A stretch of 11,583 bases of DNA from positions 64,001-75,583 of IMG/VR virus record IMGVR_UViG_3300044846_001093; one strand, given 5' to 3'. The position numbers and the translations under genes were made by a program. The notes beneath the pieces were generated by a model. The model saw only the letters and a list, made by a program, of their open reading frames with translations. It had not been told where the DNA came from and searched no databases. This DNA comes from a virus. Lineage: Duplodnaviria > Heunggongvirae > Uroviricota > Caudoviricetes. Position 1 is the stretch's first letter. Each line of letters begins with the position of its first letter. Of the stretch, positions 4,078 to 11,283 are shown piece by piece.

Positions 4078-5141
4078 TCAATAATTTCAACGTTCAGTGA
4101 CTCAACATAGAGTTCACGCATAAGACCTTTTAGCTTTGTTGAGTCAACGTTTGTTGCTAATCCATCAATGTACTTTGATAGAATTGTCATAGTATCCTCA
4201 GCTTGATCAACCAAGTCACCATCGTCAATGATAGTATCTGTAAAATCTTCAACGACAGCAACGTCTGCGACACCACCTTTATGTAGGTTGTCAATCACAG
4301 TATCAAACATGTATGCATTCTGTTTGTTGACAACGATGACTTTCACAAAAGTGTTTGCGTATTGGTCAAAATCATATGCATTCCAAAAAGCAAAATCTTG
4401 CTGACTGTCATCATATATGATCTTATGAAACATTTTATATGGATTTGCAACAAATGTCAAGTCTCTTGTGTCGGTATCAAAGATGTGGAATCCACGTTGA
4501 TCACCATAGTCAATCCATGTGATTTCATATTGATTTCCAAGGTAGGTGATGGTTCCATCTGTAGATTTATGATGAAAATGACCAGATAGTACCATATCAA
4601 AACGATTGAAAGTCTTACGATCCAAGCCTTCATGTGCAATGTTTCCTTTATCCATTTCAAAGCCAGCAATTTCAAAATGGCCCATTACAATCTCTGCTGT
4701 TGTTTCGCGTAATGCTTCTAGCGATTGGTCATAATTTGATGCATTGATCCAGGGTACCAATTGGACTTTCAGACCATCATACAGATTTTCCTGTGGCTCA
4801 GTATAAACTTTGATGTTATCATAATGGTCAAACAACTCATGCATTGCATTGATTTCATTTGTGTTCTTGTAGGTCACATCATGATTGCCAACAATAACAT
4901 CCATTGTGATGCCTTCACTCAAGAGGACATCAAAGAATCTTTTGCGCCACTGATTCAGAATAACATAGTTGATAAACTTGCGGCGATCAACAACGTCACC
5001 CAAATGAATGATGTGTTTGATGCCATGTTCCTTCAGATAGGGAAAGAACGTATTCTCCCAAAACTTGAAGAAGAATTCGTTGAACAAAAGGCTATCACCT
5101 CTTGCACCCGCATGAGTATCATTTATAAGGGCAATTTTCAT
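4074..5141 (-). CDS. 47: gp47 recombination nuclease subunit (Mre11/SbcD-like)
   Basis: Metallophosphoesterase motifs NDTH, GDVVD, GNHD, GHFH; adjacent to gp46. Confidence 0.96.
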   Translation of the reverse strand: MKIALINDTHAGARGDSLLFNEFFFKFWENTFFPYLKEHGIKHIIHLGDVVDRRKFINYVILNQWRKRFFDVLLSEGITMDVIVGNHDVTYKNTNEINAMHELFDHYDNIKVYTEPQENLYDGLKVQLVPWINASNYDQSLEALRETTAEIVMGHFEIAGFEMDKGNIAHEGLDRKTFNRFDMVLSGHFHHKSTDGTITYLGNQYEITWIDYGDQRGFHIFDTDTRDLTFVANPYKMFHKIIYDDSQQDFAFWNAYDFDQYANTFVKVIVVNKQNAYMFDTVIDNLHKGGVADVAVVEDFTDTIIDDGDLVDQAEDTMTILSKYIDGLATNVDSTKLKGLMRELYVESLNVEIIE

Positions 5142-5587
5142 GAGCGAACTTTACTTGCGACACGATTGCGCAACTCAGTCGTTGAAAAACTGTGCTTACG
5201 TTGATTGTAGTAAATCTTGATGTTGCGCTGTTCACATATGTTCTTGCCTGTGAAATTCTTATCCTCATACTCTTCACCAATAACGCGAATGGTGATAGGC
5301 AAAAACATCAACAAGTCTTCCAAGTCTTTCTCTGTCTGATACACAATAATTTCATCAACGTATTTGACTGCGCTCAGTTGAACATGTCTCTCAACGATAG
5401 ACTGCACAGGAGAATTCTTAGTGTCTGGACGATCAATAGATGGATCTAGTTGTAGACCCACGATCAGATAGTCACACACAGACTTGGCTTCAGCCAACAT
5501 GAGAATGTGACCTGCATGAAGCAGATCAAAAGTGGAACAGGTGAATCCGACTGGCTTTCCAGTCATGTTGTCAGGTAAAGATAGCAT
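5138..5587 (-). CDS. Cytidylyltransferase (TagD/glycerol-3-phosphate cytidylyltransferase-like)
   Basis: GFTCSTFDLLHAGH (HxGH), YLIVGLQ.D, ER..QL.AVKYVDE, C-terminal R.HSFSTT.LR. Start placed at MLSLPDN (5587) because GGAG lies 6 nt upstream. Confidence 0.88.
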   Translation of the reverse strand: MLSLPDNMTGKPVGFTCSTFDLLHAGHILMLAEAKSVCDYLIVGLQLDPSIDRPDTKNSPVQSIVERHVQLSAVKYVDEIIVYQTEKDLEDLLMFLPITIRVIGEEYEDKNFTGKNICEQRNIKIYYNQRKHSFSTTELRNRVASKVRS

Positions 5588-5602
5588 ATTGAACTCCATG
5601 AT

Positions 5603-6238: not shown

Positions 6239-6652
6239 TTAGTGTATTATTTGTTTATTAGTACTTGGTTCTTGAAGTAGTTCTTCTGAATCGTCTTCTA
6301 GGTCAAGTTCTCCATCAGAGTCAAAATCATCAAGTAGTGATTCATCAATCTGATCAGTGAAGTTTGAAATCATTTCATTAGCTTCAACGACTGCGTTGTT
6401 ATAGTATTCAATCAATGCTGTTCTTGGTTCAACGATAGTAAGAACTTCATTCATAGAAATACATGCAGAGTTTGTTTGAACCAGTTCCATAGGTAACCAT
6501 GGAGACATTAGCAACATTGATTTACCGGCAGACAGCCTCTTATAAAAGAGTGTCATCGGGTCATACATCTCTATGATGCCATTGCTATTCAGATGGTAAG
6601 AAGTAATGATATCTTCACCATCTTTGAGCCTAATAATTCTAACATTATCCAT
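6239..6652 (-). CDS. Conserved hypothetical protein between uvsW and gp55 (possibly Sm-like fold), acidic C-terminal tail
   Basis: N-terminal VRIIRLKDGEDII and PWLP motifs; syntenic position; 8-nt overlap with the uvsW C-piece stop. Fold assignment is tentative. Confidence 0.7.
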   Translation of the reverse strand: MDNVRIIRLKDGEDIITSYHLNSNGIIEMYDPMTLFYKRLSAGKSMLLMSPWLPMELVQTNSACISMNEVLTIVEPRTALIEYYNNAVVEANEMISNFTDQIDESLLDDFDSDGELDLEDDSEELLQEPSTNKQIIH

Positions 6653-6975
6653 TTTTTATATCTATCTTGTAAAATTTATAAGAGAATTTCTCCTCTTCAT
6701 ATATTTTAGCACGTTCCACAAAATGTTTCAACGTAAAGTTGGTATGTTTACCTATTCTAAAATCATCAGCAATATCATATAAAGTCGCAGAGTCTTTGTT
6801 GTCACCCTTACGTAAGACACGACCTAAAGATTGCAGATTACGAATCCGAGACTTTGATGGTGATGCAAAGATCGCGTTGTGTAGATTCTTTATATTTATG
6901 CCTGTAGAAAAAGGTGCCGAAAGAAGCAATAATAATGCAACCTTCACCTCCTTTCGTAATTTTATCCGGCTTCAT
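6645..6975 (-). CDS. uvsW: UvsW helicase C-terminal piece (motifs V-VI), interrupted by a +1 frameshift at the T5 run 6908-6912
   Basis: ATG at 6975 with AAGGA 6 nt upstream gives MKPDKITKGGEGCIIIASFGTF. The +1 frame continues STGINIKNLHNAIFASPSKSRIRNLQSLGRVLRKG...YDIADD to the stop at 6645. Joined, this is the canonical IIxASxGTFSTGINI motif V and QSxGRxLR motif VI. Confidence 0.85.
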
Positions 6976-7660
6976 TTTGTTTCCTTTTATTTTTTCTAGA
7001 CTCTAACATATTGTTTCTCCAAACAGGATCATTCCACTTTTCCTTCAGTGCGCTTCCATCTGATCCTCGTGGTTTTCGGGTTTTCATTTTGTCGCGAAAG
7101 TTTGGATCATTTTTCCACTTTTCTTTTATTTTCTCACTAGCAGCTTTTCTCTTGTTTTCATCACCATTTACTTCACTCATTTTTGACTTAAATTTTTGTA
7201 AAAAAGCCTCATCCTCATAGCGTTTTTTGGTTCCAATAACCTGTTTATGTGCACCATGTGTTATGTAGTGGTTTACCATTTGTTCAGATTTACTTCGCTT
7301 TTTGTCTTCTGTCCAATATTCCATCATCGCAGTTTTTCTTTTTTTCACAGATTCATCTGTGTGGGACAACCTATTTTGATTGACATAAGACCAACCTCCT
7401 TTTCCTCCAGAATTTAGATTATATGACATTTCATCATCCGGAGAAATCAAACTATTTTCAACATCATTCATCTGAGACTCATCCTCACATAACTGAATAA
7501 TTTGTTTTTCAAAATTTTCAATTCCATACTTAGCTATGGCTTTTCTTATGAGTGTTCCTGAACCCATGTAATTGTCGTTAGGATTTTCTGTAATATGTTT
7601 ACCTATGTAAAATCTGCCGTTTATTTTGTTTATTATCCTATATATCGTGTAGTATTTCAT
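6962..7660 (-). mobile_element. Seg-like GIY-YIG homing endonuclease inserted inside uvsW
   Basis: YTIYRIINKINGRFYIGKH, YMGSG..I.KAI.KYG..NF, YNL..GG.GG; basic C-terminal region with repeated KW(K)NDP; GGAG RBS 5 nt upstream of the ATG; visibly AT-richer than flanks. Confidence 0.92.
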
Positions 7661-7675
7661 ATTGACTCCAGTAGA

Positions 7676-9001
7676 CTACTTTTTATTATTTAGTATCCAA
7701 CGGGCATCAATATCATCAGTTTCAGTAATATATTTTGCTTTTTTTGTTGTGCCGTCTGTCAGCGGTATCAATTCGTTTTCCGAACATTTGATTTTAGTGT
7801 CACCAAACTCAAAAAGTAGTTCACCTTCTAGTGGATGTGAGTCCGTAAGGTGACGAATCTGTTCACGAGTTTCAACATCTGTGCCACCATGCACAAAGAA
7901 TACCTTACGATCTTTCTTCTCAGCGTCAATCAGTCGCATCAATTCTTTGCCGTGTTTTTCAACCAACTGAAACAAAATCAGTGAGTTGCCTTTCAGCGAC
8001 AGTGCTAGATTCTTGATGAATGCATTTCGCTGTGGACACTTTACCAAGTAATCTATCTCAGCTTGATAGTCCCAACCACGACTCAGTTTACACACTTCAT
8101 CTGAGTATTTCAGAACTAGACATTTAATTTTCAATGATGATACTTGATCATTGTCCATCAATTCTTTTGTTGTAATCACCTTCAGTACAGGACCAAACAG
8201 ACCCTCCAAGACTAGCTTATGTGTCTGTGTGCCATCCAATGTGCCTGTACAACCTATGCGATATTCTGTGTTCTCCAGATTTGACATGATAGTTGACAAG
8301 GACTTTGCTTTGAAGTCGTGTGCTTCATCGCCTAGAACAAAATCAAACTGTTCAAAATATTCTTTAGGTAAATTGTATATTGATTGCCATGTGGTGATGG
8401 TCAAAAACTTATCTGTGCTTTTGTCTTTGCCTGCATACTGTCTGTGACAGTATTGATCAGAGTCATAACCATATGATTTGAAATCAGAAAACATCTGTTC
8501 AGCAAGCGATGTTCTCGGAACAATTAGCAGTCCCTTCTTGCAATTCTGTTGAATGTGGCGTATAATCAGATACAGAATGAAAGACTTGCCACTTGATGTT
8601 GGAGATAGAAGTAAGGCTCTTTTGTTACGTATTGCATGAACGAACGCATCAATCTGGTAGTCGCGCTGTTCTAAATGCTCTGGAATGCCCAGAGTCTCAA
8701 TGAAGTCTTTTGCTTCTTTGATTGAGAAATTTTCTAATGCGTCTATTGACTTGTCGTACACGACGGTGTACTCTCGGTCATCACAAAATTTTTGAATGTA
8801 TGGAATTAGCCCATAGTAAATTGTGTTGTCTTTGATTGAGTAGAGTCTGATAAAACCGTCCCAAAGTTTGTTCTTGAATGCTGGAACAAACTGATATCCC
8901 GGAACTCGGAATGAAAAATGTTGACTCAATTCCTGAGCTAAGTCTCTATCACATTCAACCTTCACAAAAGCGTCATTCAGCTTGTGTATTATCAATTTCA
9001 T
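7676..9001 (-). CDS. uvsW: UvsW helicase N-terminal piece (motifs I-IV) with a 55-aa foreign C-terminal tail
   Basis: RDYQ, SPTSSGKS (I), VPRTSL (Ia), DEAH (II), TGT (III), LILFQLVEKHG (IV), VHGGTDVETREQIR. Helicase similarity stops at about 7844. Confidence 0.93.
   Translation of the reverse strand: MKLIIHKLNDAFVKVECDRDLAQELSQHFSFRVPGYQFVPAFKNKLWDGFIRLYSIKDNTIYYGLIPYIQKFCDDREYTVVYDKSIDALENFSIKEAKDFIETLGIPEHLEQRDYQIDAFVHAIRNKRALLLSPTSSGKSFILYLIIRHIQQNCKKGLLIVPRTSLAEQMFSDFKSYGYDSDQYCHRQYAGKDKSTDKFLTITTWQSIYNLPKEYFEQFDFVLGDEAHDFKAKSLSTIMSNLENTEYRIGCTGTLDGTQTHKLVLEGLFGPVLKVITTKELMDNDQVSSLKIKCLVLKYSDEVCKLSRGWDYQAEIDYLVKCPQRNAFIKNLALSLKGNSLILFQLVEKHGKELMRLIDAEKKDRKVFFVHGGTDVETREQIRHLTDSHPLEGELLFEFGDTKIKCSENELIPLTDGTTKKAKYITETDDIDARWILNNKK
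7679..7843 (-). other. Putative degenerate Hint (intein-like) segment fused to the UvsW N-piece
   Basis: LLFEFGDTKIKCSENELIPLTDGTTKKAKYITETDDI follows the Hint pattern (Y/F)xIxLEDGxxIxCTxxHxFxTxxGxxxAxxLxxGDxI, but the block-B His position is Glu. Recognised by eye only. Confidence 0.45.
7687..7694 (-). promoter_or_regulatory. Possible variant late promoter (ACTAAATA) for the intra-uvsW endonuclease
   Basis: ACTAAATA on the minus strand, about 27 nt upstream of the endonuclease ATG, inside the tail coding sequence; 6/8 match to TATAAATA. Confidence 0.4.
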
Positions 9002-9677
9002 TTTTTACCCATCTATGTATAGTTTTGTGGGATACACCAAAGTGTGTTATTGCATCACCTATGCTAGGGAATTGTATTCCGCGCACAACAATCTTCTTTT
9101 TTCGGGAATTACTAATTTTATTACGAACCTCAAGTCTTTTTGATGAATTTGCTTCACCTCTAACGCCACATTTGCTGTGATCCCTATTATTCATCTTTCC
9201 ATCATCCCATGCTTTTTTGATGGCAGCACCTCTCTTTTTCAAATCGCACTTTTTTCCAAACTCTCGTTGTTTTTCTCTATCATTGAAAATGCAATTTGAT
9301 CTACCCAATTTCCATCCAACAGGAACATCTTCATCTCTATTGATGTATTTGTCTTTTTGGCCATCCGTTATCCATTTTTTATTAGATACTGTATCGCCTC
9401 CATCACCCTCTTCAATTTTCAGATTTGCCCAGGAGTCAGAATTTACAACATCATATTCTAAACTTTTTTCTATGGCAATTTTTTTGAACTGCTCAAAGTT
9501 ATCGGATTCAAAAATCAGTTCTGTTGTTATATCATTTCCATACTTTTTCAAATGCGATTTCCATAATTTGCCTGATCCTTTATATGAATCATATTTTTCG
9601 CCATCAGATTTCGTGTAACAGAGGTATTTCAGTTTTGTGATCTTATGTGTTTTGATCATCAATTTGTGTGTTTGCAT
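8973..9677 (-). mobile_element. Divergent GIY-YIG-type homing endonuclease with C-terminal HTH (NUMOD1-like) between uvsY and uvsW
   Basis: KLMIKTHKITKLKYLCYT...YKGSG..WK.HLKKYG...WANL..E.GDGG; C-terminal F.SI.DA..HFGVSHKTI.RW; AAGGAG RBS; own late promoter. Confidence 0.8.
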
Positions 9678-10728: not shown

Positions 10729-10736
10729 TATTTATA
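10729..10736 (-). promoter_or_regulatory. T4-type late promoter TATAAATA overlapping the HNH stop codon, 5 nt before the gp3 ATG
   Basis: Minus strand reads GTA TAA ATA GTATC ATG. Confidence 0.85.
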
Positions 10737-11283
10737 CAATCTTTTTACATGTCCAGCCTTTGATGTGACTTCTGGACATATTGCCTTGATCAAATCCATT
10801 CTCCCTACAAAACTTAGTCAAGTTAGTTACTTCAAATGATACACCCTCTGGATTGGTCATTTGATATTTCTTCTGTCTGGTCTCAGCAACTCTTTGTTTT
10901 TGATATTCAGTATTCTTTTTACCCCAACGCCTTGTTTTTTGAACATGTTCTGGTGTAAGTTTTTTGCCTTTTTTGGCTAAACTCATTTTTTGTTTAGATT
11001 CTTCTGAGTATTTGAAAGTCTTCCTGAATGCACTGATCTTTTCTCCGAAACCATCCGGCTTCTTGACTCCTTTCTGCGACATAGCGATCTGTCTTAGAAT
11101 TTCGTCTTTTCCTATTTGACCAGTTAGTCCTAGCCAAGCCCAGCGATCCTCATCTCTGCCGTTTGTCTCATACAATATTCTATGAGCTTCCGCATGTTCC
11201 TCTATTGTCAACTCTATCAAATTTGATGGATCATCTGAGCCACCGGCATGCCTTGGTACTATATGGTGTTTATGTTTTATCAT
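10732..11283 (-). mobile_element. Free-standing HNH homing endonuclease (MobE-like N-terminus) with NUMOD3-like repeats
   Basis: HHIVPRHAGGSDDPSNLIELTIEEHAEAH; SEESKQKMSLAKKGKKLTPEH; inserted between gp23 and gp3. Confidence 0.9.

Follow-up and report, generated by a model that had tools for sequence, protein, structure and literature searches.

The uvsW helicase gene of the virus examined here is interrupted by what is best read, with a probability of roughly 0.6, as a mobile cassette descended from a split intein, in which a non-splicing protein clasp would join the two helicase pieces and a miniature translational bypass would restore the reading frame of the second. As a homing unit, the cassette would consist of a tail on the first piece, an endonuclease gene, a leader on the second piece, a short copy of helicase sequence and a recoding site, all placed within uvsW at a loop of its second RecA domain. 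It lies in a window of 11,583 nt (the whole stretch of DNA that was analysed), which is the end of a 75.6-kb virus record (IMGVR_UViG_3300044846_001093; 46% complete) carrying T4-like genes. Neighbouring genes include the end of the major capsid gene, an HNH gene, a tail-completion-like gene, uvsY, a second endonuclease-like gene, a sigma-factor-like gene and gp47/gp46-like nuclease genes; those with no family match we take to be the genes expected from T4 gene order. The HNH-NUMOD3 endonuclease gene (10732–11283, minus strand) is directly downstream of the major capsid gene end, and genes for a TET-associated glycosyltransferase, a peptide deformylase and a cytidylyltransferase-like protein are found at 336–2172 and 5138–5599 (minus). 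The second endonuclease-like gene (8973–9677, minus; PHROG homing endonuclease, NUMOD1) overlaps the start of uvsW, is missing in two related loci (L001 and L002), and bears a likeness to T4 segE, for which uvsW is the listed target; the first codons of uvsW differ between alleles.

All parts of uvsW are on the minus strand: a 441-aa N-piece (7676–9001), a GIY-YIG ORF (6962–7660) and a C-piece beginning at the ATG at 6975. Residues 1–387 of the N-piece (7841–9001) cover UvsW_N, the first RecA domain and most of the second (Pfam UvsW_N/ResIII/DEAD; PHROG DNA helicase), and are followed by a C-terminal extension (7676–7840; net charge −4) made up of a putative half-Hint domain, a short terminal helix and the stop, the Hint-aligned part being 7697–7831. 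The endonuclease gene stands free between the pieces, encodes 232 aa (Pfam GIY-YIG, E 2.9e-5; PHROG homing endonuclease, E 3.6e-35) and overlaps the start of the C-piece with its 3′ end. The C-piece opens with a basic leader, MKPDKITK plus a GGEG linker (6940–6975), whose start is conserved in 62 C-pieces, and continues in the same frame into a cassette-borne helicase segment, CIIIASFGTF (6910–6939), where a Cys (6937–6939) takes the place of the usual Ala.

A preliminary description of this DNA had reported a 55-aa segment at 7679–7843, in frame at the end of the N-piece. The segment is present and correctly placed, but its start needs to be moved, since D387 has a counterpart in intact UvsW, the Glu of ITE, and so belongs to the helicase; the foreign part begins at Ser388 (7840). 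The closest intact alleles read ITE-KEND-AIIIAS here, four residues being replaced by the cassette. When a five-sequence profile of the tail was run against 1.84 billion proteins, 85 matches were returned, comprising about 70 UvsW tails, ten intein-like segments and a few unrelated repeats. The same tail thus ends a UvsW N-piece in about 70 clusters (50% identity), so that it is not a chance feature, and in none of them does it run on into the helicase C-part. A region-level homologue search gave one near-copy only, and a single pattern run on a bacterial and archaeal genome collection found no relatives. Some tail-bearing N-pieces (such as P0030 and P0012) have complete inteins elsewhere, at the DEAH box in the case of P0030. 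In L028 (2980–3153) the tail directly follows KNLALSLN, about 45 residues short of the usual junction in UvsW, as a result of a second insertion site or of a deletion; the C-piece of this allele is beyond the contig. A T4-type late promoter, CTAAATA (7687–7693, minus), was considered in the last tail codons, upstream of the endonuclease gene, but was rejected, being present in only 12 of 60 tails.

The preliminary description regarded the tail as a catalytically dead half of a Hint domain, and profile and fold searches alike bear this out: the tail is very probably the second lobe of an N-intein. Tails of about 70 UvsW clusters and N-halves of true split inteins are found by the same profile. 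Eight of the ten intein-like matches were scanned and all eight belong to intein or Hint families (Pfam Intein_splicing), the best single-stretch E-values for intein N-halves being 5.5e-5, 2.5e-4 and 8.6e-4. Aligned by hhalign to an intein alignment, tail residues 5–49 fall on intein columns 54–99 (98%, E 5.9e-14), a value that is partly circular because the intein alignment was chosen with the tail profile. The predicted structure of the tail (pLDDT 87.5) was compared with 48,161 solved chains, and the best 24 matches are Hint domains without exception (top Z 5.0); the second is the Npu DnaE N-intein, residues 48–98 (Z 4.8, rmsd 3.5, 49 aligned). Low Z values are to be expected for 50 residues, and it is the uniform ranking of Hint domains that constitutes the evidence. 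Hint-family leads for the tail also came from the ESM Atlas, at <0.9. Pfam, PHROG and PDB sequence searches gave no Hint match, either with a single tail or with an alignment of 74 tails, so that the homology is visible only to the profile search of the whole library and to fold searches. One UvsW that is itself split and tailed (L031) carries in its first RecA domain a contiguous, in-frame insert (protein P0047, residues ~215–270) resembling a second half-Hint with the last strand (hhalign 34%, P 0.0004).

Although Hint-derived, the tail cannot splice, since Cys1, the block-B His and the terminal His-Asn are all missing. As had been described, Glu occupies the block-B His site (7772–7774), where His is found in one of 74 tails. 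The loss of the first half of the N-fragment was also recognized correctly: in all tails the helicase passes straight into the second lobe, block A with Cys1 or Ser1 and the rest of the first lobe are absent, and the alignment spans intein columns 54–99 only. Equally, the C-piece does begin with MKPDKITK at the ATG at 6975 and has no terminal His-Asn, and in the 62 leaders there is neither a block F nor a (His)-Asn or Gly-Asn before a Cys, Ser or Thr +1 nucleophile. The Cys at 6937–6939 is where it was said to be, but it does not have the role of +1 extein nucleophile then given to it, which was rejected: Cys is found in 7 of 62 split alleles, replacing a helicase Ala that is present in 72 of 78 intact genes. 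An atypical split intein that still ligates the halves through this Cys might be suggested by the Hint homology of the tail and by the nearness of the Cys to the junction in the window; against the lack of block A, the single His among 74 tails, the leaders without His-Asn or Gly-Asn and the rarity of the Cys, it is scarcely credible. The cassette probably derives from a split intein but is not one.

The ancestral state of the cassette, as far as sequence comparison tells, is likely to have been the split intein of a fractured gene. Two of the inteins nearest to the tail belong to nrdD genes that are fractured around an intervening ORF, and their complete C-halves start MKIKKITY and MRIIKKTK. 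The MKPDKITK leader resembles these starts and is likely a remnant of the first C-intein strand. Both nrdD loci (L342, 3001–6879, and L344, 3001–6489) have complete split inteins around the intervening ORF; NrdD is outside the hosts listed in the accessible part of Dassa et al. (2009, PMC2677866). Loss of the first lobe and of every catalytic residue would have turned such a split intein into the present cassette.

The C-piece holds a likely more striking feature than the half-Hint tail. It is not a single ORF but occupies two frames, and the predicted +1 shift and the hairpin had been overlooked. Read from the ATG at 6975, the protein matches UvsW as far as Phe22 and then continues with unrelated residues to a stop at 6838. 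The remaining helicase sequence (6645–6908, minus; 87 aa; Pfam/PHROG), which covers motif VI and the end of motif V, lies in the +1 frame, because ACC has five T after it where four are needed; it is a single copy in the 46%-complete record. The predicted shift site is ACC UUU UUC (6907–6915, minus; extra T within 6908–6912), and an RNA hairpin (6909–6955, minus; −17.8 kcal/mol, z −3.1) ends in it. A sequencing error was rejected as the source of the extra T, which recurs in two other assemblies (97.7% identity) and in distant phages.

Among 62 distinct C-pieces, 50 have a lesion of 1–11 bases in the same motif, 16 of them with one extra base and 34 with a gap of 4–11 bases, and 12 are in frame; the sizes are 1, 4, 6, 7, 9 and 11 bases. 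The one-base lesion is at ACN UUU U/C, where tRNA-Phe can re-pair, in 15 of 16 cases, and that of the window is a one-base shift at UUU-U without a stop. In L062 (967–1071), perhaps a recombinant or a broken copy, the extra base precedes a Thr codon (GGA AAC ATT C), where no slip of tRNA-Phe is possible. The gaps of the larger class begin two codons earlier and invariably open with an in-frame stop (34/34), and their last codon tracks the take-off codon: Ser TCG goes with TCG, Leu CTT with CTC, and Tyr with TAT, TAC, TGC, GAC, AAC or TAA, or with TGA or GTC, which fit less well. Over 16 gap types, which are related by descent, pairing between the landing codon and the take-off tRNA is possible at a mean of 2.31 of 3 positions, whereas chance gives 1.26 and none of 20,000 simulations reached as high a value. 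The gap of L130 ends in a poorly matching codon, and matched landing codons could partly stem from short duplications. A hairpin with z < −2 at or just 5′ of the site accompanies 49 of the 50 lesion alleles; among in-frame split alleles it is present in 1 of 12, and among intact genes in 13 of 78. In 45 of 50 the sense strand gives the better fold. An AAGGAG in the leader is at the same time a hairpin arm, and a role as Shine–Dalgarno stimulator is inseparable from its role in the arm. Lesion patterns are confined to split genes (9/9, and 22/22 with upstream DNA), and 79 of 79 distinct genes sampled for the in-frame pattern are unsplit. Motif VI is kept in all 62 downstream parts, with no other stop or frameshift in the DNA covered.

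These patterns make ribosomal recoding in the C-piece quite probable. In the window, ribosomes would shift by +1 at UUU-U/C through re-pairing of tRNA-Phe, while in the relatives they would hop 4–11 bases from the codon before the stop to a matching codon, helped in either case by the hairpin refolding behind them. In a 70S system, an upstream refolding hairpin is reported to stimulate +1 frameshifting (PMC6321510); what drives the gene 60 bypass has been proposed to be a 5′ stem-loop (10.1101/2022.08.31.505936). The efficiency of the shift in the window may be low, since its A-site codon is an ordinary Phe codon and not a stop. Reassignment of stop codons was rejected, as most gaps also shift the frame and some contain two different stops. 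Re-initiation in the downstream frame was likewise rejected as a general solution: several alleles have the stop and no start codon before the motif, and a conserved strand would also be skipped. No published description of a frameshift, bypass or intein in uvsW was found.

The frame could instead be repaired in RNA, by transcriptional slippage on the T run, by excision of a hairpin-looped micro-intron or by splicing of the whole insert. In the folds of L023, L031 and L054 the gap is indeed a bulge between two helices, and in the Dickeya phage LIMEstone1 the uvsW insert is annotated as a 'putative intron I-LimI' (PMC3296691), no splicing test being described in the accessible part of that paper. 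Yet the insert is almost wholly protein-coding and has no Rfam match (E up to 1), the T run is just 3–5 long and is missing in the stop-gap alleles, and excision would leave the last gap codon free, when in fact it tracks the take-off tRNA. Repair at the RNA level is thus improbable. A group I intron was rejected: no core was found by Rfam in window positions 6500–8200 (E up to 1), nearly all of the insert is coding, and there are alleles with no spacer at all between the pieces.

A tree of the helicase parts, made by a quick method, interleaves split and intact alleles, and its strong branches force at least six changes between the two states. In several pairs of alleles the tail and leader are near-identical while the flanks differ at more than half of the synonymous sites, and since the cassette is far less diverged than the flanks, the moving unit runs from the tail through the lesion. 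By these comparisons, the cassette is shown to move between divergent uvsW alleles. Where an in-frame allele has an endonuclease-sized ORF, the same motif mostly carries substitutions instead (ASSGCF, ASSNCF, ANMATM), which fits lesion and motif substitution being two escapes from self-cleavage. By analogy with T4 mobA and gene 60, the lesion somewhat more probably than not owes its existence to its spoiling of the endonuclease's own target.

It might be asked whether the split alleles are simply dead, the cassette having disabled a dispensable helicase and homing outpacing its decay, with the lesion doing no more than guarding the target. T4 tolerates mutation of uvsW, intact genes are found among the close relatives of split alleles, and transfer has been recent in some pairs; as homing is recent, purifying selection on the helicase parts may also predate the insertion. 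However, an extra stop or frameshift is seen in 0 of 62 downstream parts, and a deep, well-supported group of 21 rows consists nearly entirely of split alleles with stop-gaps. The lesion and hairpin, moreover, outlast loss of the endonuclease, and matched landing codons and sense-favoured hairpins (45 of 50) would have no purpose in a dead gene. Dead alleles are accordingly about as improbable as RNA repair, and recoding is the reading retained here.

The other part of the main reading concerns the two ends of the cassette, for which the preliminary description had suggested a zipper between the helicase halves. The 62 distinct C-pieces downstream of a tail or lesion all open with a short foreign leader (MKP in 39, MAK/MAR in 17). 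Tails are acidic in 92% and leaders basic in 87%, and the pN/pS of the tails is 0.25–0.45. Reduction or loss of the endonuclease leaves both tail and leader in place, also in cultured Vibrio phages; the endonuclease is gone in L029, L031, L032, L035, L054, L061, L104, L110 and L142. In the Hint fold, the first of the retained tail strands pairs in antiparallel fashion with the opening strand of the C-intein. What is retained would thus make up a single lobe whose two ends are adjacent, which would suit insertion in a loop. A modelled complex of the homologue L049 scored 0.33, against 0.01 for the best control, with a contact agreement of at least 89% and a partner pLDDT of at least 51 over the runs; of 80 solved pairs 58 reach the mark for this score, as do 2 of 110 mismatched ones, but only 7 of these solved pairs, and both mismatched ones, do so at 0.60 or less, so that a score of 0.33 is weak. 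When the L029 pair was folded through the stop (5-residue spacer) the leader did not dock, a result limited by the short linker and the unpaired alignment. On sequence and modelling together, a tail–leader zipper is favoured, though modestly. The two pieces would be made as separate proteins, the acidic tail would bind the basic MKPxKI leader as in intact inteins, and the two would close a small one-lobe domain that aids assembly of the helicase halves; these steps are, taken jointly, somewhat better than an even chance.

It is also conceivable that the half-Hint is a passenger, the halves associating by their own surfaces and the recoding being real, with tail and leader supplying a stop, a start, a hairpin or a folded cap. 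The pN/pS of the tail is above that of the helicase parts, and part of the leader's conservation could be due to its overlap with the endonuclease end and to the adjoining hairpin. In the NrdA of Aeh1, the tails are dispensable for heterodimer formation and aid higher-order assembly (PMC3045599). Against this stand the near-invariant tail residues in about 70 clusters, kept even after endonuclease loss, the opposite charges of tail and leader, and the complex score, weakly positive where controls are close to zero. A mere passenger is therefore rather unlikely, and the clasp is preferred.

Parallels exist in known systems. The T4 gene 39/mobA/gene 60 arrangement, with its 50-nt translational bypass (10.1101/2022.08.31.505936; structure in PMC11461880), also has, in the same order, a C-terminal extension, an endonuclease, an N-terminal extension, a cassette-borne copy of host sequence and a recoding site close to where the downstream gene begins. 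Its extensions likewise outlast the endonuclease, its endonuclease families are exchanged, and, as in the uvsW relatives, a stop follows the take-off codon, landing is matched and there is a 5′ hairpin. By this analogy the uvsW cassette would work like gene 39/mobA/gene 60, but stands outside that family: its host gene is a helicase and not a topoisomerase (there, at Gly46/Asp45), the gaps are 1–11 bases and not about 50 nt, and take-off is from Phe, Tyr, Ser or Leu rather than Gly or Asp codons. The uvsW tail is demonstrably Hint-derived, whereas the T4 extension had been called unique. The gp39 C-terminal extension (L215, 1782–1940, and L216–L221) keeps the register of the tail when the two are aligned (hhalign 22%, P 0.001), gp60 starts MKFVKI, and PDB 8YO3 is fifth in the Foldseek list of the tail; against the intein alignment the gp39 extension gave an unsupported 1.2%. 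It is possibly another half-Hint.

Dassa et al. (2009, PMC2677866) describe fractured genes in which split inteins are accompanied by a free-standing endonuclease. There, as here, two gene halves lie around a GIY-YIG gene, the first with an N-intein-like end and the second with a C-intein-like start that is oppositely charged. The inteins nearest to the tail are arranged in this way; the accessible part of the paper makes no mention of uvsW. Unlike those split inteins, the uvsW cassette keeps only the second lobe and about eight residues of the C-half, with no catalytic residues. Aeh1 nrdA-a/mobE/nrdA-b is similarly an endonuclease-split replication gene with oppositely charged terminal extensions, but the extensions are without database matches and no recoding site has been described, unlike in the uvsW cassette (PMC3045599). 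Among cultured members of the family, LIMEstone1 and the Vibrio phages D506 and K452 have the same tail and an MKPTK leader at the same site; their C-pieces, unlike that of the window, are in frame and have no hairpin, and D506 and K452 have lost the endonuclease.

The tail had been presented as a new fate for inteins. The idea of a degenerate split intein is not new, as Crona et al. (2011, PMC3045599) speculated that the Aeh1 nrdA tails, for which they found no database matches, are such; what is new is demonstrable Hint homology, which provides evidence for that speculation by indicating that, in phage genes split by endonucleases, the assembly tails can have arisen by erosion of split inteins. 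Manning and Atkins (10.1101/2022.08.31.505936) noted that, until their homologue search, gene 60-like bypassing was unreported in other phages. The uvsW family offers dozens of natural, very short predicted recoding sites, all within one motif, in which take-off and landing codons co-vary and the hairpin vanishes once the frame is restored. With such a series, the minimal requirements of bypass, and its origin in target protection, become directly testable with short reporters, and the non-splicing pair of about 55 and 10 residues could serve as a protein clasp if the binding is true. More tentatively, it could be speculated that a one-lobe, non-splicing clasp taken from a split intein lets endonucleases split genes safely, that the cassette also bears a graded set of ribosome jumps driven by the hairpin, from a 1-base shift up to stop-hops of 11 bases, as an independent, miniature counterpart of the gene 60 bypass, and that the 'TOPRIM insertion' of T4 gp39/gp60 is possibly a diverged half-Hint clasp as well.
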